A stretch of 64,000 bases of DNA from an uncultured Planctomycetales bacterium. GTDB lineage: Bacteria > Omnitrophota > Gorgyraeia > Gygaellales > Profunditerraquicolaceae. The stretch covers positions 19,574 to 83,573 of the forward strand of contig CAZJFL010000009.1 of assembly GCA_964545575.1 (NCBI GenBank), given 5' to 3'. A program made the position numbers and the translations under genes. Position 1 is the stretch's first letter. Every line of letters starts with the position of its first letter. The notes below the pieces were generated by a model. That model was not told the DNA's origin and made no database searches. It was given only the letters and a program-made list of their open reading frames with translations. This document shows, piece by piece, positions 3,688 to 36,258 of this stretch.

Positions 3688-4529
3688 AAATAATCCGCAG
3701 CATCAAACAGATGCAACAGGTTTCCCGCAAGATTCGGCAGGAGGGCAAAGCAATCGGTTTTGTGCCGACTATGGGCGCAATGCACGGGGGGCACTTAAGT
3801 CTGATCCGCCGGGCGCGTAAGGATAATGATATTGTAGTAGTTAGTATTTTTGTCAACCCCACCCAGTTCGGGTCAGGAGAAGATTTTAAAAAATACCCCC
3901 GGGTTTTTAAAAAGGATGCGGCACTGTGTAAAAAAGAAGGCGTAGATTTAATTTTCTCGCCCTCTACAGAAGCAATGTATACGCAGGATCACAAGACCCA
4001 TGTTTACGTCGAACATTTAAGCGACCGTTTATGCGGTAAATTTCGGCCCGGGCACTTCCGCGGCGTGGCAACGGTGGTAAAAAAACTTTTTAATATCGTC
4101 CGTCCCGACGTAGCTTATTTCGGCCAAAAAGATGCCCAGCAGGCAATCATCATTAAGAAGATGGTAGAGGACCTGAATATGCCGCTGGAAATAAAAGTAC
4201 TACCGACGGTGCGCGAAGAGAACGGCCTGGCGATGAGCTCGCGCAATAAATATTTATCCGCCAAAGAGAAGAGAGATGCCGTAGTTTTGTATCAGGCCTT
4301 GAGGCTGGCAGGCAGGTTGATTAAGAAGGGAAATAGAAATTACCTGGGTATTATTAAGCAGATGCGCCAGCTTATCGCTGGAAAGAAAAACATCTCGGTG
4401 CAATATATTTCAATCGTCAACTTAGAAGACTTTTTACCGGCAAAGAGGATAAAGGGTAAAATTTTAATTGCTTTAGCAGCGCATATAGGTAAAACCAGGT
4501 TAATCGATAATATAATAGTAAATGGCTAA
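3684..4529 (+). CDS. panC: pantoate--beta-alanine ligase
   Basis: 281 aa with the PTMGAMHGGHLSLI HIGH-type motif and FVNPTQFG. Confidence 0.9.
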   Translation: MKIIRSIKQMQQVSRKIRQEGKAIGFVPTMGAMHGGHLSLIRRARKDNDIVVVSIFVNPTQFGSGEDFKKYPRVFKKDAALCKKEGVDLIFSPSTEAMYTQDHKTHVYVEHLSDRLCGKFRPGHFRGVATVVKKLFNIVRPDVAYFGQKDAQQAIIIKKMVEDLNMPLEIKVLPTVREENGLAMSSRNKYLSAKEKRDAVVLYQALRLAGRLIKKGNRNYLGIIKQMRQLIAGKKNISVQYISIVNLEDFLPAKRIKGKILIALAAHIGKTRLIDNIIVNG

Positions 4530-5340
4530 ATTAAGGATAGGCATTGTCGGTTGCGGGGCAATAGGCTCTTCTTTGGCGAAGGTTATCTCTTTGGATTTAT
4601 CGCAGAAAGCCGAATTATGCGGATTATGCGATATAAATAGAGAGAGCGCTTTAAAGTTAGCGGTCAAAGTCGGCAATCCCAAACTAGTGATGCCGGATTT
4701 AAGGGCGTTGGTTAGAAGATCGGATTTAATCATCGAGGCGACAAAGGCAGCTTTTGCTTTTGATATTGCCAAGCAGGTTTTATCAGCAAAAAAAGATATC
4801 ATGGTGATGAGCGTAGGTGGCCTGCTCGATCGCTATAAAAAGCTTATTGAACTGGCAGAGAAAAATAAGGCTAAAATTTTTATACCTTCGGGGGCGATAT
4901 GCGGGATAGACGGGCTGAAAGGGCTATCCTCGGCAAAGATTAAAAAAGTTACTTTAACCACTAAAAAACCGCCCGAAGCATTCGCAGGTGTCGATTATAT
5001 TAAGGAAAAGAATATAAAATTAGACGGTATTACCGGTGATATGGTTATTTTTGAAGGGACTGCGGAAAACGCGGTATCGGCTTTTCCGCAAAATATCAAT
5101 GTCGCCGCTACCTTAAGCATGGCCGGTATCGGCGCCAAAAATACCGTGGTGCGTATCGTAGCTTCGCCTGGAGCCAAGAGGAATATCCACGAGGTGGAAA
5201 TAGATTCCGACGCCGGTAAAATCGTTGCCCGCACGGAAAATGTAATCCATCCGGATAATCCCAAAACCAGTTACCTGGCGGTTTTATCGGCGGTTGCTGC
5301 GCTAAAAGGGATTTTAAGTCCGATCAAAATCGGAACTTAA
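4522..5340 (+). CDS. nadX: L-aspartate dehydrogenase
   Basis: 272 aa. It has the IGIVGCGAIGS Rossmann N-terminus and a C-terminal aspartate-dehydrogenase domain (NVAATLSMAG, HPDNPKTS). Confidence 0.65.
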   Translation: MAKLRIGIVGCGAIGSSLAKVISLDLSQKAELCGLCDINRESALKLAVKVGNPKLVMPDLRALVRRSDLIIEATKAAFAFDIAKQVLSAKKDIMVMSVGGLLDRYKKLIELAEKNKAKIFIPSGAICGIDGLKGLSSAKIKKVTLTTKKPPEAFAGVDYIKEKNIKLDGITGDMVIFEGTAENAVSAFPQNINVAATLSMAGIGAKNTVVRIVASPGAKRNIHEVEIDSDAGKIVARTENVIHPDNPKTSYLAVLSAVAALKGILSPIKIGT

Positions 5341-5407
5341 GTGAGGACATAAGTTATGGAGAATATAAATTTAAATGTAACCGACATAACTTATAAGTCC
5401 GAACTTA

Positions 5408-5505
5408 CACCGTTACCCGGCGCTTATGAAGCGAGGTAACGGTGTTAATTCGCGCATATAACTTACGTCGTGCTTCGCACTCCGTAAGTTATGCGCTCAT
5501 TAAAA
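5408..5505 (+). promoter_or_regulatory. Structured 5' leader, copy A, of a conserved multi-stem RNA element. Stem 1 pairs caccgttac with gtaacggtg. It is followed by conserved single-stranded TTAATTCGCG, a stem pairing ATAACTTAC with GTAAGTTAT around a small hairpin, then conserved CGCTCATTAAAA and the ribosome-binding site.
   Basis: The same architecture and conserved linkers occur at 11298-11460 with compensatory base changes in both stems (seen in sequence). Confidence 0.55.
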
Positions 5506-5527: not shown

Positions 5528-5767
5528 ATGGCAGAGAAAGTAATGAAACTGGGAATCAAGAGAGTGAAAGGTAGCCTCTATTACCTGGACAAGAAAGGCG
5601 ATGTTTCCTGCGCCAAGATGGCCAGAGGCAAGAAAAAAGGAGGTAGCCCGAAAAAGGTAGCCAAATGCGGTATCAAGAGGAAAAAGGGTTACCTTTATTT
5701 CATTGACAAGAAAGGCGATGTCTCCTGCGCCAAGATGAAAAGAGGCGGAAAGAGAAAGAAAAGATAA
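5528..5767 (+). CDS. Small Lys-rich protein built from two tandem copies of a ~33-aa repeat, G-I-K-R-x-K-G-x-L-Y-[YF]-x-D-K-K-G-D-V-S-C-A-K-M; function unknown
   Basis: The ORF is preceded by GGGGGTG. The internal duplication is evident in the translation. I cannot assign it to a named family with confidence. Confidence 0.55.
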   Translation: MAEKVMKLGIKRVKGSLYYLDKKGDVSCAKMARGKKKGGSPKKVAKCGIKRKKGYLYFIDKKGDVSCAKMKRGGKRKKR

Positions 5768-5853: not shown

Positions 5854-6585
5854 ATGGAAGACAATATCATAATCAGAGGCGCTAAAGAGCATAACCTCAA
5901 AAATATAAATCTGAAGCTTCCCCGTAACAAGCTGATTGTAGTCACCGGGCTGTCCGGTTCCGGCAAGTCCAGCCTCGCCTTTGATACTATTTATGCCGAA
6001 GGCCAGCGCCGCTACGTGGAGAGCCTCTCTAGTTATGCCCGCCAGTTTCTGGAACAACTGCAGAAGCCCAATGTCGAATCCATAGAAGGCCTCTCTCCGG
6101 CAATCGCCATCGAGCAGAGGGCTGCGGGAGGAAATCCGCGTTCTACCGTTGCCACCCAGACAGAGATCTACGATTATCTGCGCCTGCTTTTTGCGCGTAT
6201 CGGAAGAGTAAGCTGCTATAAATGCGGCCAGCCGATAGAGCGCCAGAGCTCCCAGGAGATAGTAGGGCAGGTAATGCATCTTGCGCCGGGCACAGATATT
6301 CAGATATTAGCGCCGCTGGTCAGCGGAAGAAAAGGCGAATACCGCGAAATCTTCGGCTCAATTCAGAAATCCGGTTTTGTCAGGGTGCGCGTGGACGGCA
6401 AGATTCATGAACTGCCGGTTAAATTGAAACTGGCAAAATACAAAATCCACAATATTGAAGTGGTGGTAGACAGGCTCACCGTAAAACCAGAGATCAAAAA
6501 AAGGCTTACCGACTCGATAGAGACCGCCCTTAAAGTAGGCAAGGGCACCGTGATTGTGGCATATCGCATATCGCATATCGCATAA
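5854..6585 (+). CDS. uvrA: Excinuclease ABC subunit A, N-terminal fragment; ends at an in-frame TAA (6583-6585)
   Basis: It has the [28 protein letters not shown] Walker A region of UvrA. The next ORF continues UvrA in the same reading frame. Confidence 0.8.
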
Positions 6586-6633: not shown

Positions 6634-8700
6634 ATGATATTCAGCGAGCAATACGCCTGCGCCAAATGCGGTATTAATTACTCGGAGGTAGAGCCGCGTA
6701 TTTTTTCCTTTAATTCTCCTTATGGCGCTTGCCCCGAATGTAACGGCCTGGGCACAAAATTTGAGTTTGACCCGGATTTAGTGGTGCCGGATAAATTCAA
6801 ATCCATCAATGCCGGCGCCATCGAGGCCTGGAAACGCGGAGGGCGGGGCTACATTCTTTATTACCGCTGGCTGATCAGGGAATTGGCAGCGGCGCTTAAT
6901 TTTGATTTAGATGCGCCGTTTAAGGTCTTAAGCAAGGAAATCCAGCGCGCCATACTTTACGGTACGGATGAAGAAGTCAACGGCAAGCCTTTTGAAGGGG
7001 TAATCCCGCACCTGGAGAGATTATTCCGCCAGACGAAAAGCGACTATCTAAAAGAGGAGATTTCCCGCTTTATGTCCAGCCTCCCCTGTCCTGCCTGCAA
7101 AGGCGCGCGCTTGAAAAAAGAGAGCCTTGCCGTTACCGTTGGCGCTAAAAATATCTGGCGTCTCGCGCAGATGTCGGTAAAAGAGAGTTACGAGTTTTTC
7201 GAAAGTATTAAATTAAACGAAAGAGAAAAGCTTATTGCGCACGACGTATTAAAAGAGATTATCCGTAAGCTAAAGTTCTGCATAGATGTGGGCCTTAATT
7301 ATCTGACTTTGGACCGCCGGAGCTCGACGCTTTCCGGAGGCGAAGCTCAGAGAATCCGCCTGGCAACGCAGGTGGGCTCGGGATTAGTCGGCGTATTATA
7401 CATTCTGGATGAACCCAGCATCGGCCTGCATCAGAGAGACAACGCCAAATTAATCAACACGCTTCTAACCTTGCGCGACTTAGGCAATACCTTAATTGTG
7501 GTGGAACATGACGAATACACTATCCGCGCCGCAGATTATATCGTGGACTTAGGCCCTGCTGCCGGAAGGCACGGCGGAGAGATCGTTTTTGCCGGATGGC
7601 AGAAGGATTTATTGGCGCAAAAAAGTTCTCTCACTGCAAAGTACCTGCGCGGGGAGCTTAAGATAGAAGTACCTAAAATACGCCGGCCCTGGAAAGAGAA
7701 AAAATATTTAGAGATAAAAGGAGCCGGAGAACATAATCTTAAAAGTATAGATGTAAAGTTCCCCTTAGGAACGTTTATCTGCGTTACCGGAGTGTCCGGT
7801 TCAGGAAAGTCTACGTTAATTGATGAGATACTTTACCGGGGCCTGGCCCAGAAGCTGTATAAATCCAAGGATAAGCCGGGAGCGCACAAAAAAATACAGG
7901 GCGTCGAGAATATCGATAAGGTCATTGTAGTTGACCAGTCGCCGATAGGCAGGACCCCGCGCTCGAATCCGGCGACTTACACCGGAGTATTTAGCCAGAT
8001 CAGGGATATTTTTAGCCGCTTGCCCGAGGCAAGGCAGCGCGGTTATAAAGCCGGCAGGTTCTCTTTCAATCTTAAAGGCGGACGCTGCGAGGCCTGTCAG
8101 GGAGACGGGATCAAAAAAATCGAGATGCATTTTCTGCCGGATGTCTACGTCAAATGCGATGTCTGCAGAGGCGAACGTTTCAACGAAGCAACTCTGGAAG
8201 TAAAATACAAGGGTAAGTCTATCGCTAGCGTTCTGGATATGACAGTTGAGGAGGCGCTCGGCCTTTTCCAGAATATCCCCCGGATAAAAAATATTCTCCG
8301 CACACTTTATGATGTGGGCTTAGGTTATATTCAGTTAGGGCAGTTCGCCACCACCTTATCGGGAGGCGAGGCGCAGAGAGTAAAGCTATCTTCGGAATTA
8401 AGCAAGCGCGCAACCGGAAAGACCCTCTATATTCTGGATGAGCCGACCACGGGTCTACATTTTGCAGACGTGGAAAAACTGCTTGCGGTGCTGCAGAGAT
8501 TGGTGGATAAAGGTAATACCGTGATTGTCATTGAACATAACTTAGAAATAGTCAAATCCGCCGATTTTATTATAGACCTGGGGCCTGAAGGCGGAGACAG
8601 AGGCGGAGAGCTGGTGGCAAGCGGCAGCCCCGAGGATATTATTCAGAGCAGGCGTTCTTATACGGGTGAGGTTTTAAGAAACGTGTTGAAGAAGGATTAG
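6634..8700 (+). CDS. uvrA: Excinuclease ABC subunit A, remainder (zinc-finger region and second ABC domain), in the same frame as 5854-6585
   Basis: It contains [33 protein letters not shown], the UvrA zinc-finger region, a second Walker A ([11 protein letters not shown]) and the LSGGEAQR signature motifs. Confidence 0.85.
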
Positions 8701-8732: not shown

Positions 8733-11285
8733 ATGTATAAATCCGAAATCCGAATCCATAAATCCAAAACAAATCCAAAATCCAAAATCCAAAATCCAAA
8801 AAACAGAAAATTTTGGTTTTTGGTTATTGGATTATTGGTAATTGTTTGTAATTTGGCACCTGGTGCTTTGAACTTTAATTCATACGCCTATGCCCAGGGC
8901 GCCAAGGAAGAAGAAGCGCTTTTTATCGCCAAGAAGGCCTTTGAAGACGGTTTTTATGATGTCAGCCTCGGGCTTCTGGAGCGCTTCTTAAGGAATTACC
9001 CCAATACCGCAAAAATTCAGGAAGTAAATCTTCTCATCGGAAGGTGTTATTTCCAGCAGGGCAGGTTTCTGGACGCCCTGAATAAATTCGAGGAATTGCT
9101 AAACCAGCCCCAGGCTAAGAATATAAAAGACGCGGTTATTTACTGGATTGCCGAAGTACATTTCCGCGGCAATAACTTCAGCAAATCCGCTTCTTACTAC
9201 AAAATGATTATCGATGATTTCCCCGTTTCTGCGTATGCGGTTTCCGCTTACTATTCTTTAGGCTGGTGTTTATTCCAGGAGCGTAAGTTCGACGAAGCCC
9301 TCAGGTTTTTTAAGGCTACAGAGGAAAAGTTCCCCAAAGAGCCGCTGGCGCAGGACGCCTCTTTTAAGATAATTGAATGCCTTTATAATTTAAAAGATTA
9401 CTCCGGCATAAAGGAGAGGATTAAATTGTATCTAAAGATATACGCCAAGGACCCGGATAAACTTTATTACCTCTATTTTTACCTGGCGGAAGCGGATTAC
9501 TACCTGAATAATTTCCAGGAGGCTATCGACGAGTACGCCAAGGTCATTGTAAACAGCCGCGACGAGAAAACTCAAGGGCTATCCCGGCTCGGCACGGGCT
9601 GGGCTTTTTTGAAATTAAAGCGTTATCAGGAGGCAGAAAACACCTTCGCCGGCATTAAAGCCGAAACCCTTGAGAAGGCCAGTCGAGATGCGCTGTATCT
9701 GGGCAAAGCGATATTAATGGCTGAAACTAAAAGGTTCGATGAAGCCAAAGGCGCCTACGCCGCATTACTGGCCACTACCGAAGACCCGGTAGTTTTAATC
9801 CAGGCTTATATCGGCAGAGCCGATGCCTTTTATAATCTGGCCGACTATCAGGAGGCAATCGCAGTATATAAAGAAGCTGCGCAGAAAATATCGGGATCCG
9901 TTCCACAGGAGGTCGCCGATAAATTACACTACGGCCTGGCCTGGGCGCTTTTGAAAGAGGGTGAGTTTAAGGAGGCGATAGACGAATTCCAGAAGATCGC
10001 CAAACATACGGAAGATAAGATTATCAAAGTAAGCGTCCTCTGCCAGATCGGAGATACCTATCAGGATTCCGGCGATTACGCCAAGGCCGCCGAGTCCTAC
10101 GATGTCATCTTAAAAGATTATCCTGACAGTTTATACAGCGATTACGTCCAGTATCAGCTGGGCATTACGTTACTGAAAGCCTCTAAATATGACGGGGCGA
10201 TCCTGGCCTTCCAGAATCTTAAGGCCAAGTTCCCCGATTCTAAATTGCTGGATGATGCCTCCTACGCTTTAGGCTTATCTTATTTCCAGAGGGAGGATTA
10301 TAATGCCAGTAAAGAAATCTTTGAGAAGTTTACCCAGGAATATAAGGATGGCAGTTTAACGCCGCAGGCGACTTATCTATTGGGGACCAGTTTCTATAAC
10401 CTGGGAAAATATGCCGAGGCCATAGAGGTATTTAAGAATATTATCCGGATGTACGGCCAGGATGAAGAGCTCGTCCAGAAGGCAGAATACGAAATAGCCG
10501 ATTGCTATTACCAGCTGGGCAATGAGCAGGAATCCCTGAACAGGTTTAAGACACTGCGTTCTAAATACCCGGATTCTAAACTTACCCCGGAGGTAATCTG
10601 GTGGCTGGGCGAATATTATTACCGGCGTAATGAGCTAAGCATTGCGCGCCGGTATTTTACTTCCCTGATCCAGGATTTTCCCAAGAGCGCTCTGACCGCG
10701 TCGAGTTTCTACGCCGTAGGCTCTACTTACGCGGAGGAGTCTAATTATCAGGAGGCGATAAATAATTTCCAGAAAGTCATGGAGTTGGATAAGGCAGACC
10801 TTGCGGGGCAGGCAGGGGTGGCCATGGGAGATATCTACCTTAAGCAGGAGAAGCCGGATTTAGCGCTTGGGGCTTATAAGGATGCCGTGGCAGAACACGC
10901 AAATCTGGATAACCTGGTCTATCCTAAAATCGCGGATGTCTATAGCAAGCTGGGCGATTATGACCAGGCGATTGATTTTTACGAGAAGGGTTTAGCGGTC
11001 GTGCCTTTGCGCCAGATGAGCGATATCCAGTTTAAGATAGCCGAAGCCCGTCAGGCTAAAGGCGCGCTCGCGGAGGCTATCGAGGACTATTTGAAGGCGA
11101 CCTACCTTTATGCGGATAATAATGATCTGACCGTCAAAGCCCTGTTAAGAGTAGCGGCGATTTATGAGAATAAAGAAAACTTTAAAGAGGCGCTGAATAT
11201 TTATAAGCGCATTGCCGCGATGAATGTAGAAGAGGCAAAATACGCGCGCGAGCGCATGGACTGGATCAGAGTAAATATAAAATGA
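8733..11285 (+). CDS. Large TPR-repeat protein with an N-terminal signal or transmembrane segment (YbgF/CpoB-like tetratricopeptide repeats)
   Basis: 850 aa. Repeated A-x-x-x-Y...G-x-Y-x-x-A TPR-like units run through the whole protein. It lies upstream of the exbB/exbD/tonB-like genes. Confidence 0.7.
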   Translation: MYKSEIRIHKSKTNPKSKIQNPKNRKFWFLVIGLLVIVCNLAPGALNFNSYAYAQGAKEEEALFIAKKAFEDGFYDVSLGLLERFLRNYPNTAKIQEVNLLIGRCYFQQGRFLDALNKFEELLNQPQAKNIKDAVIYWIAEVHFRGNNFSKSASYYKMIIDDFPVSAYAVSAYYSLGWCLFQERKFDEALRFFKATEEKFPKEPLAQDASFKIIECLYNLKDYSGIKERIKLYLKIYAKDPDKLYYLYFYLAEADYYLNNFQEAIDEYAKVIVNSRDEKTQGLSRLGTGWAFLKLKRYQEAENTFAGIKAETLEKASRDALYLGKAILMAETKRFDEAKGAYAALLATTEDPVVLIQAYIGRADAFYNLADYQEAIAVYKEAAQKISGSVPQEVADKLHYGLAWALLKEGEFKEAIDEFQKIAKHTEDKIIKVSVLCQIGDTYQDSGDYAKAAESYDVILKDYPDSLYSDYVQYQLGITLLKASKYDGAILAFQNLKAKFPDSKLLDDASYALGLSYFQREDYNASKEIFEKFTQEYKDGSLTPQATYLLGTSFYNLGKYAEAIEVFKNIIRMYGQDEELVQKAEYEIADCYYQLGNEQESLNRFKTLRSKYPDSKLTPEVIWWLGEYYYRRNELSIARRYFTSLIQDFPKSALTASSFYAVGSTYAEESNYQEAINNFQKVMELDKADLAGQAGVAMGDIYLKQEKPDLALGAYKDAVAEHANLDNLVYPKIADVYSKLGDYDQAIDFYEKGLAVVPLRQMSDIQFKIAEARQAKGALAEAIEDYLKATYLYADNNDLTVKALLRVAAIYENKENFKEALNIYKRIAAMNVEEAKYARERMDWIRVNIK
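8739..8838 (+). repeat. Hexamer microsatellite of AAATCC-like units followed by its inverted complement (TTTTGGTTTTTGG...)
   Basis: Seen in sequence. The repeat encodes the low-complexity N-terminus KSKTNPKSKIQNPKNRK and the start of the transmembrane helix. Confidence 0.6.
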
Positions 11286-11297
11286 GGATCAAATTTG

Positions 11298-11460
11298 CTC
11301 CGTTGCCCGGAATTATAACGTAAGGCAACGGAGTTAATTCGCGGACGCCCGCCGCAAAGATTGGCGGGCTACAACTTACATTCGCTTGCCGCAGAAGCGG
11401 CACACCGGCTGTTCCAATACAGCCGGGTGTTTCGCTCTGTAAGTTGTCCGCTCATTAAAA
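11298..11460 (+). promoter_or_regulatory. Structured 5' leader, copy B, of the same multi-stem element as 5408-5505. Stem 1 pairs ctccgttgcc with ggcaacggag. It is followed by TTAATTCGCG, a stem pairing ACAACTTAC with GTAAGTTGT around variable hairpins, then CCGCTCATTAAAA and GGAGG.
   Basis: Both stems carry compensatory changes relative to copy A. It sits directly upstream of exbB. Confidence 0.55.
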
Positions 11461-17960: not shown

Positions 17961-18656
17961 ATGAAAAAAGAGATAGCTCATCTAAGATTAGCAAATTGCC
18001 AGGTTTTCTTTGACTTCGATAATACTATTACTACTTTTGACGTGCTGGACGATATCATCAGGCGTTTTGCGGTAAACAAAGACTGGATAAAGATCGAAAG
18101 GGATTGGCAGCGGGGTAAAATCGGCTCCCGGGAATGCCTGAAGAGGCAGATGAAGCTGGTCAAAGTAGATAGAAACAGGCTGCTGGCTTATCTTTCTGGA
18201 ATCAGGGTAGACCCTTATTTTAAAAAAATATTGGTTAAACTTAAAGCAGGCGGGGTGAAGCCCGTTATAGTGAGCGACAGTTTTTCTTTTGTAATAAATA
18301 ATATACTGCGTAACAATGCCATCCGGGGGATCAAGGTTTATTCCAATCAGCTCAATTTTTCTAATGGCGGGTTCTCTTTATCCTTTCCTCACCGGGATAA
18401 AAAATGTTGTTTATGCGCGCACTGCAAGAAAAACAGCTTGTTAAGAAAAGGCGGGGATGCTAAAATTAAAATATATGTAGGGGACGGGGCGTCGGACCTC
18501 TGCGCGGCTTTGCATGCGGATCTGGTGTTTGCAAAAGGAAGATTGCGGGATTACCTGCGCCGCAGAAAAAGAAGCTGTATCCCCATAAAAAGCCTGAAAG
18601 AAGTCTATCTTTATTTTAACGGAGCCGGAACCCATGGTACGCAAAGAAAAAGTTAA
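17961..18656 (+). CDS. HAD-superfamily phosphatase (MtnX-like)
   Basis: It has the FFDFDNTIT motif I and VGDGASD motif IV. Confidence 0.6.
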   Translation: MKKEIAHLRLANCQVFFDFDNTITTFDVLDDIIRRFAVNKDWIKIERDWQRGKIGSRECLKRQMKLVKVDRNRLLAYLSGIRVDPYFKKILVKLKAGGVKPVIVSDSFSFVINNILRNNAIRGIKVYSNQLNFSNGGFSLSFPHRDKKCCLCAHCKKNSLLRKGGDAKIKIYVGDGASDLCAALHADLVFAKGRLRDYLRRRKRSCIPIKSLKEVYLYFNGAGTHGTQRKS

Positions 18657-20046
18657 AATTAGCAATAGGCAAAGCAAAGGCAGGCAGGAAGAGTTGCGGG
18701 ATTTAGAAGCGAAATTCTGTTCCTGGGGGGATACCGTGCATTATGCCAAGAACCCCAAAATATTTTCCCGCGCCGAGGGGTGCTATCTTTATGACCGGGA
18801 GGGCGTTGCGTATTTAGACCTGCAGATGTGGTATTCGGCGGCCAATTTTGGCTATAAGAACAACAGGTTAAATCAGGCGCTGAAAGACCAGATCGATGAG
18901 CTTCCGCAGCTTGCCTGTCAGTACCTCCATGAAGAAAAGATTGCACTCGCCGCCAAGATCGCCCAGCGCATAGAATTGACTTTTGAGGAAAAAGGAAGGG
19001 TGCATTTTAATGTCGGCGGTTCCGCGGCGGTGGAAGATTCCTTAAAATTAGTCCGCAACCATACGGGCAAGAACCTGGTCTTTGCCTTTATGGGCGGTTA
19101 TCACGGAAGGACCTTGGGCGCCTCCGCCATTACCTCCAGTTACCGCTACAGGGAAAAGTTCGGGCATTTTTCAGACCGGGCGCATTTTATTCCCTACCCC
19201 TATTGTTTCCGCTGCCCTTACGGAAAAAGAAAAGAATCCTGCGAATTGTATTGCCTGAAACAATTCGAGCGCCTTTTTGAGAGCGAGTATTATTCGGTAT
19301 TAAACACCAAGACCAACAAATGCGAATTCGGGGCTTTCTATATAGAGGCGGTGCAGGGGACAGGCGGCTACATCATCCCTCCGCGCGAATATTTTTCCAA
19401 ATTAAAAGAGATACTGGATAGATATAATATACTCCTGGTGGATGATGAAGTTCAGATGGGATTTTTCCGGACCGGAAAGTTCTGGGCGATAGAACACTTT
19501 GATGTGGTGCCCGATATTATCGTATTCGGTAAAGCCCTTACCAACGGCCTTAACCCGCTTTCGGGGATCTGGGCTAAAGAGAATCTTATTTCTCCCGAAG
19601 CATTCCCTGCCGGATCTACCCATTCCACATTTTCTGCTAATCCTCTGGGCACAGCCGTAGGTCTGGAAACGATGAAACTGATAGAAGAATCAAAGTTCGC
19701 CGCAGAAATACCCGAGAAGGGAGAGTATCTGGTATCCAGATTTAAAAATCTGCAGAAGAAATACCGCCAGATAGGGGATGTCGACGGGTTGGGCCTGGCC
19801 TTAAGGATAGAAATCTGTTATGAAGACGGCTTTACCCCCAATAAAGAACTGACCGACGCCATAACCGATATCGGCCTTGAGGGAAAACTTTCTTATCAAG
19901 GCAAAAAGATGGGATTAGTCTTGGATGTCGGCGGCTACTATAAAAACGTCTTTACCATTGCGCCCTCATTCTATATTTCAAAGGAAGAAATGGATCTTGC
20001 CGTTGAACTCTTCGAAAAGGCTTTGCAGCTTGCGCTTAAAATTTAA
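18634..20046 (+). CDS. Class III PLP-dependent aminotransferase
   Basis: 470 aa with GGYHGRT, DEVQMGFFRTG, FGKAL and THSTFSANP motifs. Confidence 0.75.
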   Translation: MVRKEKVKISNRQSKGRQEELRDLEAKFCSWGDTVHYAKNPKIFSRAEGCYLYDREGVAYLDLQMWYSAANFGYKNNRLNQALKDQIDELPQLACQYLHEEKIALAAKIAQRIELTFEEKGRVHFNVGGSAAVEDSLKLVRNHTGKNLVFAFMGGYHGRTLGASAITSSYRYREKFGHFSDRAHFIPYPYCFRCPYGKRKESCELYCLKQFERLFESEYYSVLNTKTNKCEFGAFYIEAVQGTGGYIIPPREYFSKLKEILDRYNILLVDDEVQMGFFRTGKFWAIEHFDVVPDIIVFGKALTNGLNPLSGIWAKENLISPEAFPAGSTHSTFSANPLGTAVGLETMKLIEESKFAAEIPEKGEYLVSRFKNLQKKYRQIGDVDGLGLALRIEICYEDGFTPNKELTDAITDIGLEGKLSYQGKKMGLVLDVGGYYKNVFTIAPSFYISKEEMDLAVELFEKALQLALKI

Positions 20047-20112
20047 TCCCCGTAGTCATTAAAAGTCCGGCAGTAAAACCCCGATAAAACTTTATATTTA
20101 GTATTTTTGTGT

Positions 20113-22760: not shown

Positions 22761-23548
22761 TGATCTGGCGCTTAGGAAAACTAGTCATTGATACCGTAAA
22801 GGGTATCGTTGGGGTATTTGGCCTTTTTTTTAATATCCTCTACTGGATATTTATCGGGCCGTTCAAAGGAAAATTCTCCCGGCGCCAGAGCATTTTCCAT
22901 CAGATGGTTTTTGTGGGCCTAAGTTCTATGCTGATAGTCTTTTTCGTCTCGATATTTACCGGCGTAGTGCTGGCAATGCAGTCTGCTTATCAGCTGGAAA
23001 AGATGGGGGCGGTTTTGTATGTCGCATCGCTAGTAGCGATTTCATTATGCCGCGAATTAAGCCCGGTGCTGACTGCGCTGGTAGTCGCCGGAAGGGTGGG
23101 TTCGGCATTCGCCGCGGAGTTAGGCACGATGAAAGTGAGCGAACAGATAGAAGCGCTGGATACCATGGCCATAAATCCGGTGCGTTTTCTGGCCGTGCCG
23201 AGGTTCCTGGCCTTATTTTTCATGCTGCCCTGCCTTACGGCGCTGGCAGACCTTTCGGGTATTTTAGGCGGGTATCTGGTGGGGACGAACAGCCTGGAAA
23301 TTAACCCGGATTTATACATGCAGACTACTTTTAAATACCTGGAATTGAAGGATATCAATACCGGGCTGCTAAAGGCTTTTGTCTTTGCTATCATCATCGC
23401 CCTGATCGGTTGTTACGAGGGCTTAAATACCAAAGGCGGCGCCGAAGGCGTAGGCAAGGCAACTACTAAAAGCGTCGTCACAAGCTTCATCCTGATAATC
23501 CTGGCTGACTGCGTCCTGACAGCCATATTTTATTTCTCCAAAGTATAA
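22760..23548 (+). CDS. mlaE: MlaE-family ABC transporter permease
   Basis: 262 aa with the polytopic MlaE/Ttg2B pattern. It is followed by mlaF and mlaD. Confidence 0.8.
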   Translation: MIWRLGKLVIDTVKGIVGVFGLFFNILYWIFIGPFKGKFSRRQSIFHQMVFVGLSSMLIVFFVSIFTGVVLAMQSAYQLEKMGAVLYVASLVAISLCRELSPVLTALVVAGRVGSAFAAELGTMKVSEQIEALDTMAINPVRFLAVPRFLALFFMLPCLTALADLSGILGGYLVGTNSLEINPDLYMQTTFKYLELKDINTGLLKAFVFAIIIALIGCYEGLNTKGGAEGVGKATTKSVVTSFILIILADCVLTAIFYFSKV

Positions 23549-34258: not shown

Positions 34259-35911
34259 ATGAATTTGCAAAGGCCGAACGCAAATGACGCGACTGGGACG
34301 TTTAACCGTTCCAAGAACGTGGTACCGGGTTCTGGTATCTGTTCTCGGTGTGTGGATGGGTGTAAAGGTAACTGCGAAGTCTTCAGGGCGACTTTCCGGA
34401 GCCGCGAGGTTATTTATCCGGGCCCTTTCGGAGAAGTAACTGCTGGAGCGGATAAGGATTATCCCGTGGATTACTCTCACCTAAATATCCAGGGCTATGC
34501 CTTGGGTGCTAAGGGTCTGCCGCAAGGCACAGAAGGTAATCCTGATACGACCAAATTCCCCGATGTGAATACCGAGGCCGAGTACGGCTGGAACTCAAAG
34601 GTAAAAATGAAAGTTCCTATTTTTACCGGAGCTTTGGGCTCAACGGAAATCGCCAGAAAAAACTGGGAGCATTTTGCCGTGGGTGCAGCAATTTCCGGCA
34701 TTACCCTGGTGTGTGGCGAAAATGTCTGCGGTATTGACCCCGGGCTGGAATTGGATAGTAACGGCAAGATCAAGAGTTCGCCCGACATGGACAGGCGTAT
34801 CGAGACTTATAAAAGGTTCCACAACGGCTGGGGAGAGATTTTGGTCCAGATGAACGTGGAAGATACGCGCTTGGGTGTTGCCGAATACGTCAGGAAGAAG
34901 CATAAACTTGACGCTATAGAGTTGAAATGGGGGCAGGGCGCTAAATGTATCGGCGGTGAGATAAAGGTAAAGAGCTTAGAAAGAGCTTTGGAATTACAGA
35001 GGCGCGGTTATATCGTTACTCCTGATCCCTCTCAAGAGGCGAACCAGAGAGCCTTTAAAGACGGCGCAATAAAAGAGTTTGAGCGCCATTCCCGCTTAGG
35101 GTTTGTTTCAGAAGAGGCATTTTTGGCAGAAGTCAAGCGCTTAAGAGGCTTAGGGTTCAAGCGTATTACCTTAAAGACCGGCGCTTATGCCATGCGCGAG
35201 CTGGCCATGGCGATAAAATATTGTTCCCTTGCCGGTATCGATCTTTTGACTATAGACGGTGCACCCGGCGGGACAGGAATGAGTCCTTGGAGGATGATGG
35301 AAGAATGGGGTATCCCTACCTTTTATCTGGAGGCGCTGGCCTATGAGTTCTGCCAGGAATTAGCCAAGAAAGGGATGCGTATTCCGGATATAGCCATAGC
35401 CGGAGGTTTTTCCAGCGAGGACCACGTTTTTAAAGCCTTAGCCATGGGCGCGCCATACGTCAAGGCAGTCTGTATGGGAAGATCCCTGATGATACCCGGC
35501 ATGGTGGGAAAGAATATTGCCAATTGGCTAAAAGAAGATAATCTTCCGCCTACCGTATCAGCTTACGGCAAGACAGAAAAAGAAATTTTTGTCTGTTACG
35601 AAGAGCTGCTTGAGCGATACGGCAAGGAGATGAAAGATATACCCTTGGGTGCGGTGGGGATATATTCTTTTGTGCAAAAGTTAAGGGTTGGTCTGCAGCA
35701 GCTGATGGCCGGTAGCAGGAACTTTAGGCTGAGCGCTATCTCCCGCAATGACCTGATGGCCTTGACGGAAGATGCGGCCAAGGTTTCAGGCATTCCTTAT
35801 GTAATGGATGCCTATCGCAAAGAAGCAGAGGCAATACTTAACGGTAAGGAAACAGTAAGGTTAGAAAACAATTTTAATCACCGTAGGGCCAAGGTAGCGG
35901 TGGGGAGGTAA
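34259..35911 (+). CDS. Stand-alone glutamate synthase FMN-binding domain protein (archaeal-type GltB domain 2) with an N-terminal Cys cluster
   Basis: 550 aa with the N-terminal CSRCVDGCKGNC motif and a TIM-barrel FMN domain with the GAPGGTG and IAGGF motifs typical of GltB-like proteins. Confidence 0.6.
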   Translation: MNLQRPNANDATGTFNRSKNVVPGSGICSRCVDGCKGNCEVFRATFRSREVIYPGPFGEVTAGADKDYPVDYSHLNIQGYALGAKGLPQGTEGNPDTTKFPDVNTEAEYGWNSKVKMKVPIFTGALGSTEIARKNWEHFAVGAAISGITLVCGENVCGIDPGLELDSNGKIKSSPDMDRRIETYKRFHNGWGEILVQMNVEDTRLGVAEYVRKKHKLDAIELKWGQGAKCIGGEIKVKSLERALELQRRGYIVTPDPSQEANQRAFKDGAIKEFERHSRLGFVSEEAFLAEVKRLRGLGFKRITLKTGAYAMRELAMAIKYCSLAGIDLLTIDGAPGGTGMSPWRMMEEWGIPTFYLEALAYEFCQELAKKGMRIPDIAIAGGFSSEDHVFKALAMGAPYVKAVCMGRSLMIPGMVGKNIANWLKEDNLPPTVSAYGKTEKEIFVCYEELLERYGKEMKDIPLGAVGIYSFVQKLRVGLQQLMAGSRNFRLSAISRNDLMALTEDAAKVSGIPYVMDAYRKEAEAILNGKETVRLENNFNHRRAKVAVGR

Positions 35912-35913
35912 CG

Positions 35914-36087
35914 GTGGAAAAAAAGGGGTTATGTATTACCTGTGTTCAGTCTGCAACCTGCATCTTTCCTAAGGAGCCGCCGGTATGGCAGTGCGAAGAA
36001 TTTTCTAACGGCAATCACGTGCCTGTGAGAGGCAGGCAGGCAAAGGTTAGGCAGGTTGTATACGAGCAAGTGACCGAAAGCGAATAA
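35914..36087 (+). CDS. Candidate small ORF (57 aa, GTG start) with four Cys (CxxC-x5-C-x10-C). It lies 3 nt after the FMN-domain gene and is preceded by GGAGG.
   Basis: It is not in the ORF track because it is under 60 aa. The frame is open from GTG 35914 to TAA 36085-36087. The Shine-Dalgarno spacing is good. Confidence 0.3.
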   Translation: MEKKGLCITCVQSATCIFPKEPPVWQCEEFSNGNHVPVRGRQAKVRQVVYEQVTESE

Positions 36088-36144
36088 AAATAAATAGCAG
36101 ATCAGCAAGCAAAGGACTAAGGCGTCCGATATCCAAAGCTGGAT

Positions 36145-36164
36145 AAAGGGCGCCTTTGTTTTTT
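36145..36164 (+). terminator. Intrinsic terminator (aaagg-gcgc-ccttt hairpin plus GTTTTTT)
   Basis: Seen in sequence, downstream of the FMN-domain operon. Confidence 0.5.
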
Positions 36165-36258
36165 AATGAGGGCACAATTTACGGAGCATAAGCGACGTAA
36201 ATTGTATGCCCGAATTAATCCCGCACTTACGCATAAGTGCGGGATAAGAGGTAGGCAG

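Follow-up and report, generated by a model that had tools for sequence, protein, structure and literature searches.

This study addresses a structured intergenic element that occurs in three copies in the window, a stretch of 64,000 nucleotides of contig CAZJFL010000009.1 (positions 19,574 to 83,573) from an uncultured bacterium of the phylum Omnitrophota. One copy lies in front of a gene for a small Lys-rich protein, another in front of the exbB-exbD-tonB genes, and a third on the minus strand. An earlier note, made from the letters of the window, had read the first two as a leader RNA that senses a ligand or a protein. The three copies probably represent an undescribed family of modular interspersed palindromic repeats, specific to Omnitrophota and similar to the repetitive extragenic palindromes (REP/REPIN) or to MITEs (miniature inverted-repeat transposable elements). 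The element has the hallmarks of interspersed palindromic repeats (PMC3116915, PMC3733652, PMC2229807): it is abundant and built of mosaic modules, forms inverted dimers and arrays, occurs in both orientations and at orthologous sites that are filled in one genome and empty in another, and is compensated by Watson-Crick pairs only. Since the tag of the REP sequences is missing and the unit is about 60 nt long, the element is filed as a new family of this general kind. It is not a REP, and it is not a member of the Correia/ERIC repeats.

Modules and base pairing of the element

The 64-kb window has three occurrences of a shared 22-mer, GTAARTTRTNCNCTCATTAAAA, where 0.04 would be expected. The unit around it, the R module, is an irregular hairpin of about 60 nt with the layout TTAAT-TC-GNGCA...TGCNC-TC-ATTAA-AA. 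Its lower part is a 5-bp A/U stem (UUAAU/AUUAA) followed by a 2x2 internal loop (UC/UC), its middle a GC stem of 4-5 bp (GNGC/GCNC) followed by a 2-nt bulge on the 5' side, and its top an upper stem of 9-10 bp, usually a second UC/UC loop, and then a small apical hairpin. The apex is variable, and large inserts or extra hairpins can take the place of the apical hairpin; the distance between stem halves ranges from about 10 to more than 100 nt among copies. The 3' end is an AAAA tail, and modules begin with T(T/A)A(A/G)T-TC-G. Read on the element strand, most apical loops of R modules (e.g., window 5470-5480) are C-UUC-G; on the complementary strand these are C-GAA-G, and the UC/UC internal loops are tandem GA/GA. 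C-GAA-G loops and tandem GA/GA are both unusually stable motifs, which hints that the complementary strand of the R module is possibly the folding one.

Two further modules accompany R. The H1 module is a GC-rich, nearly perfect hairpin on the 5' side of R, with a variable sequence that falls into recurrent types (e.g., CCCTTGACAT..., CCCCACACCCAG..., CCCAGCACTAATTTT..., CCCCGCCCTTTTGG...), and identical H1 types recur at non-orthologous sites in different genomes. The L module, often found 5' of H1, is an inverted and diverged homologue of R, so that the full form of the element is L-H1-R. Among the 47 module pairs that lie no more than 220 nt apart, 41 are inverted '-+' dimers. Terminal inverted repeats are present, as the outer ends (G)TGAGGAC... 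correspond to the reverse complement of ...GCGCTCA. Larger assemblies also occur: in L172 (the L-numbered names denote comparison loci or genomes), positions 4037-4740 form an array whose three composites point in both directions, and a sigma-70-like promoter as well as terminators are scattered among them. That promoter (TTGACA-17-TATATT) is a good one and stands between two composites, at 4280-4372; about 70 nt downstream of it are a hairpin and a T-run, the T-tract of which continues into the next element. This segment may encode a small RNA or serve as a transcription unit of very short length.

The two blocks of the R module that are shared between copies had been described in the earlier note as conserved single-stranded linkers, able to pair with each other and thereby close a three-way junction. 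Their mutual pairing is borne out, with the variants GCG/CGC, GGG/CCC and GUG/CAC all occurring, and this pairing covaries; the linkers are therefore base-paired and not single-stranded. In the basic form of the element they are part of one long irregular hairpin, and a three-way junction is found in copy 2 only. The boxA consensus, a single-stranded GCUCUUUAACAA-like box, serves NusB/NusE antitermination. In the element, GCUCAUUAAAA resembles boxA, but it is paired with UUAAUUCGNGC and the pairing covaries, so that boxA was rejected.

Covariation was measured in an alignment (A2) of 108 non-redundant short copies from other genomes, from which the covariance model R1 was built. In A2, 98.2% of the cells are paired, and 10 pairs have changes on both sides, in 125 cells; this pairing and compensation was reached by none of 500 shuffles, and pairing fell to 28-47% when the partners were moved by 1-3 columns. 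Pair 9-61, as an example, is CG in 90 copies, GC in 14 and UA in 4. Because two search anchors were fixed by the search patterns, the count was repeated on a second alignment (A3) of 137 R1 matches, fitted to the model and including modules that had not been ascertained by these patterns. Here 16 of 19 pairs have compensatory changes, the lower stem included (pair 2, UA 77 and AU 49; pair 4, AU 100 and GC 33), and the slide control is equally clear. The covariation of the stems claimed in the earlier note is thus confirmed on both alignments.

The kind of compensation is informative on the strand that is under selection. In a set of 107 H1 stems, 1121 pairs are of the Watson-Crick type, compared with 8 G·U and 11 A·C, and the R alignment contains 12 G·U against 9 A·C. 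A generic structured functional RNA is expected to covary with tolerance for G·U (far more G·U than A·C), and no such excess is found. As G·U is about as rare as A·C, selection keeps both strands able to pair. Stems that are Watson-Crick-only fit a DNA palindrome, single-stranded or cruciform, or an element that works in either orientation; a riboswitch read from one strand does not fit.

The same observation, together with the presence of copies in both orientations, would also accord with a non-mobile DNA-level site for a host protein, whether of nucleoid, gyrase or IHF type or an attC/dif-like recombination site, maintained as a double-stranded palindrome or an extruded cruciform. From base to apex, a lower stem, an unpaired spacer, an upper stem that has extrahelical bases and an apex that varies follow one another in a layout loosely like that of an integron attC. 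Such a site is nevertheless very unlikely, in that the attC core sites (RYYYAAC...GTTRRRY) do not appear in the right order, the neighbours are housekeeping genes and not cassettes, and the wide range of distances between stem halves argues against a site for a dimer on double-stranded DNA. An integron attC proper was rejected, as the ends, (G)TTAAT...ATTAAAA, have the wrong order and consensus and the neighbours are housekeeping operons.

Occurrence and gene context in Omnitrophota

In the pattern scans, the matches number at least 118 stretches of metagenomes and at least 117 of genomes. Seventeen of the 117 genome matches listed come from other phyla; these have no stems and are therefore chance matches. 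The stems were verified at 100 genome loci among the matches listed, which come from about 76 assemblies labelled Omnitrophota, among them Ca. Aceula meridiana and, as a complete genome, Ca. Velamenicoccus archaeovorus LiM. Some of the 100 loci are third-party-annotation bins labelled Planctomycetes, and their elements and neighbours match the rest. In 719 kb of the Omnitrophota loci the R1 model detects 163 modules, and in the 64 kb of the window it detects 4, which by extrapolation is of the order of 100 or more modules per genome. A phage or viral origin was rejected: among 2.9 million viral contigs there are only 2 pattern matches, both without stems. The earlier note did not recognise the motif, and Rfam 15 does not hold it either; the whole window has no match at the gathering threshold and only noise in E-value mode, including a weak match to Hammerhead_HH9 of 15.5 bits, where 52 is the gathering score. 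No account of the element was found in the literature on Omnitrophota, and the repeat family is apparently undescribed so far.

The element is present at some junctions between genes and absent from the same junctions in related genomes. Orthologous adjacent-gene junctions were defined by homology of open reading frames (ORFs) between loci, and of 455 such junctions, 31 have the module in both genomes and 44 in one only. These counts may understate the filled sites, since the nhmmer module profile used for them missed L modules and copy 2. In eight junction sets inspected by sequence, the genes of the empty partners overlap (ATGA) or are separated by a short Shine-Dalgarno (SD) spacer, and the filled partners are 80-270 nt long. 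Examples of filled and empty pairs are the junctions upstream of accA, rpsG-fusA, x-rpsL, rpsH-rplF, hisH and ribH. The window itself is empty at its junction between exbD and the next gene and at 23547, sites that are filled in L133 and L051. Copy 2 occupies the TPR-exbB junction, and L012 and L208 have no element there; L012 is syntenic with the window over about 12 kb, and its ExbB is 84% identical. In L012, a close relative, a run of about 18 G (L012 11606-11624) lies immediately 5' of the exbB start, and could be a homopolymer tract or have arisen in assembly. The junction of the Lys-rich gene is filled in six genomes.

The neighbourhood was tabulated for 142 verified copies among the matches listed. 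Intercistronic spacers are filled by the element over their whole length, its ends falling on stop codons, on SD sequences or start codons, and on T-tracts of the opposite strand. An SD sequence or ATG directly abuts AAAA in 79 of the 142 copies. In 44, AAAA is followed by an SD sequence, usually from the very next base, and then by the start codon; in 35, the start codon lies 0-2 nt after AAAA or overlaps it, with no SD sequence. No gene starts after AAAA in 52 copies, and 11 are arranged otherwise. The genes that start in this SD-less manner include rpsL, rpsG, fusA, rplB, rplF, rplI, accA, accC, hisH, glmS and ruvC, as named from N-terminal sequence motifs only and not by a family search. 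In particular, rpsL, rpsG, fusA, rplB and rplF begin 0-1 nt past AAAA (L210 4845-5111 and 5583-5641, L068, L232, L071, L140), whereas the element-less orthologous junctions of these ribosomal-protein and EF-G genes have a normal SD spacer. Elements also lie inside ribosomal-protein operons. The downstream genes are diverse overall (ribosomal proteins, accA, hisH, glmS, ruvC, an epimerase, exbB), with only ExbB assigned by family search.

Both neighbours could be called for 113 copies, of which 73 are co-directional with them, 25 antisense to both, 10 divergent and 5 convergent. For many antisense copies, among them copy 3 of the window, a hairpin on the opposite strand uses the TTTT of the element as its U-tract. 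This point rests on inspected examples, as a crude hairpin finder for opposite-strand terminators beside AAAA did not separate the elements from the control (14 against 11). Additionally, 10 of the 142 copies have a sigma-70-like promoter that starts no more than 12 nt past the tail, compared with none in a control window; a promoter in this position places the element outside the 5' untranslated region of that gene.

The distribution has largely refuted the riboswitch-like reading of the earlier note, in which a ligand- or protein-sensing 5' leader is common to exbB-exbD-tonB and the Lys-rich gene. Such a leader would account for the covarying stems, for the conservation of some unpaired nucleotides (the UC/UC loops, the bulge and the AAAA tail), for the position directly 5' of the ribosome-binding site in copies 1 and 2, and for the retention of the copy at the Lys-rich gene in six genomes. 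It is scarcely credible, however, given the antisense copies (25 of 113), the copies 5' of promoters (10 of 142), the rarity of G·U, the pairing of the supposedly unpaired linkers, and exbB junctions that do without the element in other genomes. No alternative terminator or sequestering structure is apparent, and the element is absent from Rfam. The note had proposed that further copies and the functions of their downstream genes be enumerated; the copies are many (at least 117 genome stretches), and there is no coherent gene set. Nor is a regulatory input shared by exbB and the Lys-rich gene supported, with unrelated neighbours in about 76 assemblies among the matches listed and the exbB junction empty in two genomes.

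As an interspersed repeat, the element would spread, now or formerly, as non-autonomous DNA, with its hairpins recognised by an enzyme in single-stranded or cruciform form. Copies between co-directional genes would simply be co-transcribed within operons. Their ends may have been co-opted, the TAA of the first stem as the stop codon of the upstream gene, the unstructured AAAA tail as a leader for an SD sequence or directly for AUG, and TTTT on the other strand as the U-tract of a terminator. Among copies whose R end abuts a start, this TAA, in the first stem of L, supplies the upstream stop codon in at least 17 of 69. The Correia and ERIC analogy makes it probable that the transcribed hairpins influence the processing or the stability of mRNA in an RNase III or RNase E type of manner; on the same analogy they would be generic determinants of processing and stability at most, and would sense no ligand.

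Several observations weigh against a mobile repeat. The orientation co-directional with genes is favoured by about 3:1, and the upstream gene is co-oriented in 68 of the 68 copies that abut a start; both the bias and the co-orientation suggest selection at the RNA level. At filled sites the original spacer is fully replaced, and stop, element and start abut exactly. No target-site duplication can be defined: TAA/TTAA, found at both outer ends, is also part of the paired lower stem and could not be told apart from it, and the filled and empty partners are too diverged for a duplication to be read. When 1.57 Mb of loci and the window, a minor part of each genome, were searched by tblastn with an IS200 TnpA, a distant query, no match fell below E = 0.36. 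Between separated modules, where an autonomous element might lie, an incidental check found the housekeeping gene PolX, and in the str operon of L210 the gene in this position would, from the module positions, be tuf. About 20 nt of module sequence are conserved across the whole phylum, far more broadly than in known MITE or REP families, and this could mean a host function instead. Finally, a mobile repeat leaves unexplained why essential and highly expressed genes start without an SD sequence after the hairpin, yet have one at empty orthologous sites. Together with the conserved module sequence, the orientation bias and the replaced spacers, this keeps a host function alive.

Such a function could be an 'operon punctuation' RNA, a phylum-wide hairpin signal that acts in mRNA. 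Two versions can be conceived. An RNase III-like endonuclease would cut the long helix and free near-leaderless mRNAs (AAAA-AUG or AAAA-GGAGG), or the fold would set the upstream stop beside the downstream start, such that ribosomes re-initiate without an SD sequence. The 35 SD-less starts within 2 nt of AAAA, with SD or ATGA at empty orthologous junctions, speak for this signal, as do the invariably co-oriented upstream gene of start-abutting copies, the stop codon embedded in the stem of L, the orientation bias and the sequence conservation over about 76 assemblies. In addition, a helix of about 20 or more base pairs with internal loops resembles the RNase III sites of phage T7. We regard the signal as unlikely, though, since any given junction can do without the element, a quarter of the copies are antisense and some lie 5' of promoters, no excess of G·U marks a functional strand, and arrays of modules stand in long non-coding spacers. 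It is distinctly unlikely that the repeat has been domesticated across the phylum as an intercistronic expression device, either for re-initiation over a spacer of about 100-200 nt or for a cut by a double-strand-specific RNase. If it has, core genes (S7, S12, EF-G, L2, L6, AccA) would be translated from a start that depends on a conserved hairpin and not on a Shine-Dalgarno sequence.

An interspersed repeat family of this kind is of practical and general interest. It is likely to be mistaken repeatedly for riboswitch-like leaders or small RNAs in Omnitrophota, and a covariance model of the module allows it to be masked. The streamlined nanobacterial genomes of an uncultivated phylum would carry about 100 copies of a structured repeat, tolerated even in ribosomal-protein operons. 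With its widely conserved core, Watson-Crick-only compensation and reused ends, the family is a good system for the study of how selfish hairpin repeats become harmless or useful. The SD-less start codons directly after a hairpin also pose a concrete and testable question on translation initiation.

The copies in the window and their neighbours

Both copies described in the earlier note are real, and their stems, compensatory changes and shared blocks are seen in the sequence as described; a third copy on the minus strand (36161-36244) and the hairpin upstream of copy 1 (5336-5407) had been missed. The predicted folds of the three copy regions are far more stable than those of shuffled sequences (z = -7.1, -5.8 and -7.9).

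Table 1. Modules of the element and an adjoining hairpin in the window
Feature	Position	Strand	Description
L module, copy 1	5336..5407	-	R1 44.9 bits, E = 1.8e-8; separate hairpin in the minimum-free-energy fold
H1 hairpin, copy 1	5408..5444	+	caccgttacc/ggtaacggtg; GC-rich, variable between copies
R module, copy 1	5445..5505	+	R1 81.1 bits; TTAATTCGCG ... CGCTCATTAAAA
H1 hairpin, copy 2	11298..11333	+	ctccgttgcc/ggcaacggag
R module, copy 2	11334..11460	+	insert-bearing variant; R1 local match only, 16.6 bits
Hairpin and T-run (tttgtttttt) after 57-aa ORF	36119..36156	+	sequence and fold
R module, copy 3	36161..36218	-	R1 72.8 bits; antisense to both flanking genes
H1 hairpin, copy 3	36219..36244	-	tcccgcactta tgcg taagtgcggga

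Copy 1 is a whole L-H1-R element (5336-5505) that begins with a stop codon (cTTAAGTGAGG) and ends at an SD sequence. The stop (TAA, 5338-5340) belongs to the aspartate-dehydrogenase ORF upstream (4522..5340; Pfam match Asp_DH_C) and is contained in the first stem of L. On the plus strand this L module reads cTTAAGTGAGGAC-ATAAGTTATGG...CGACATAACTTAT-AA-GTCCGAACTTA, and R1 gives it 44.9 bits, against 29.7 bits for the reverse complement of R itself. The GUGAG at the start of L, similar to the 5' end of group II or spliceosomal-like introns, was judged coincidental because TAAGT is the paired lower stem. The R module has the layout TTAAT-TC-GCGCA-TA-TAACTTACG-TC-GTGCTTCGCAC-TC-CGTAAGTTA-TGCGC-TC-ATTAA-AA and is followed by the SD sequence aaagggggtg and the ATG (5528) of the Lys-rich protein. 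That protein (79 aa, window 5528-5767) consists of two repeats, GIKRxKGxLYYxDKKGDVSCAKMxRG, and has no Pfam match; its gene and the upstream element are conserved in at least six Omnitrophota genomes (L012, L019, L028, L100, L191 and the window).

Copy 2 has an H1 hairpin that begins 12 nt past the stop codon of a TPR gene (8733..11285) and differs from that of copy 1 by two compensatory pair changes. Its R module has the middle stem GCGGAC/GTCCGC, an extra hairpin at the bulge and two hairpins at the apex, and these inserts are the reason for its low R1 score; the same insert-bearing class is found in L030, L038, L044, L079 and L188. Directly after it come GGAGG and the exbB ATG (11471). A sigma-70-like promoter scan found none inside or beside copies 1 and 2, so the genes downstream must be transcribed through the element. 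A promoter in the conserved blocks themselves was rejected on this absence and on their variable spacing (about 10 to more than 100 nt), and for an ECF-type promoter (AAC...CGT) the spacing is likewise wrong and variable. H1 was also rejected as an intrinsic terminator: only UUAAUU follows it, with no U-tract, and the terminator scan finds none at the three copies.

In copy 3 the linkers are TTAATTCGGG ... CCCTCATTAAAA, with GCG/CGC changed to GGG/CCC in the middle stem. On the plus strand, beyond its H1, TAAGAGG precedes the ATG (36259) of a sigma-70/LuxR-type gene. On its other side, the T-run of the hairpin at 36119..36156 extends into the AAAA end of the element on the opposite strand; this looks like a terminator that borrows the tail of the element, and a simple terminator scan did not call it. 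The hairpin follows a 57-aa Cys-rich ORF (35914-36087) with no Pfam match, which itself directly follows a gene with a glutamate-synthase domain (34259..35911).

Two other features of the window may be recorded. A mini-hairpin, TTAATCC-ccgtag-TCATTAAAA, at 20043-20064 overlaps the stop of ORF 18634..20046; it is a weak R1 match (16.2 bits, E = 0.46) that has the lower stem and tail only, and could have arisen from a module by deletion or match by chance. The uvrA gene is split by a TAA into ORFs 5854..6585 and 6634..8700, and the insert in which the stop sits, GCGATAAGCGATTAGCGATAAGCG, is repetitive and odd. Contig L001 differs in this single position (window 6585), where it has T and not A, and encodes a UvrA of 948 aa. 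The stop may reflect nonsense variation between strains or an error of sequencing.

Relation to known systems

Two systems share the intercistronic position of the element. The intercistronic RNase III sites of phage T7 are long irregular hairpins with internal loops, placed just 5' of the next start. The Omnitrophota element differs from these as a dispersed chromosomal repeat in both orientations; the likeness is one of structure alone, and cleavage here would be hypothetical. The mycobacterial MIRU lie within operons between co-directional genes and overlap the flanking stop and start codons, such that expression of the operon is preserved. They are tandem direct repeats that carry small ORFs, whereas the Omnitrophota element is made of hairpins and has no ORF.

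A REP is a short palindrome (20-40 nt) one end of which bears GTAG or CGTC as an unpaired tag (PMC3733652). The cognate RAYT gene, which codes for a Y1 transposase, is single-copy, and the repeats often flank it. REP and REPIN sequences are high-copy extragenic palindromes that are mobilised by RAYT transposases and mostly occur as inverted, head-to-head dimers around a spacer (PMC3116915, PMC3733652). The Omnitrophota element is likewise a high-copy extragenic palindrome that forms inverted dimers with a spacer, with larger folds possible; it too lies between unidirectional or convergent ORFs, is plausibly transcribed, and is long-lived within lineages. It differs in its module of about 60 nt, an irregular hairpin with conserved internal loops, and in the lack of an unpaired GTAG or CGTC tag. 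CGTC does occur inside the upper stem and loop of R, without the 8-9-bp stem and CCA tail of the CGTC REPs, and GTAG does not. Furthermore, its spacer consists of a hairpin, GC-rich and variable, the tblastn search of 1.57 Mb gave no RAYT, and the core sequence is common to a whole phylum.

The Correia/NEMIS repeats of Neisseria and the ERIC/IRU repeats of enterobacteria are bacterial MITEs (PMC2229807, PMC10969869). Experiments have shown orientation-dependent processing of mRNA, by RNase III for Correia transcripts and RNase E for ERIC transcripts (PMC2229807). Unlike these, the Omnitrophota element has no demonstrable TA target duplication or short terminal inverted repeats, each of its arms is a self-folding hairpin with its own covariation, its variants are modular and phylum-wide, and it abuts stop and start codons exactly. 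Like them, it is a non-coding unit of 100-200 bp with inverted ends, present at filled and absent from empty sites between genomes. The Correia and ERIC units form stable stem-loops that are co-transcribed with the flanking genes, and the ERIC sequence is conserved across genera at differing locations, a pattern that the Omnitrophota element resembles.

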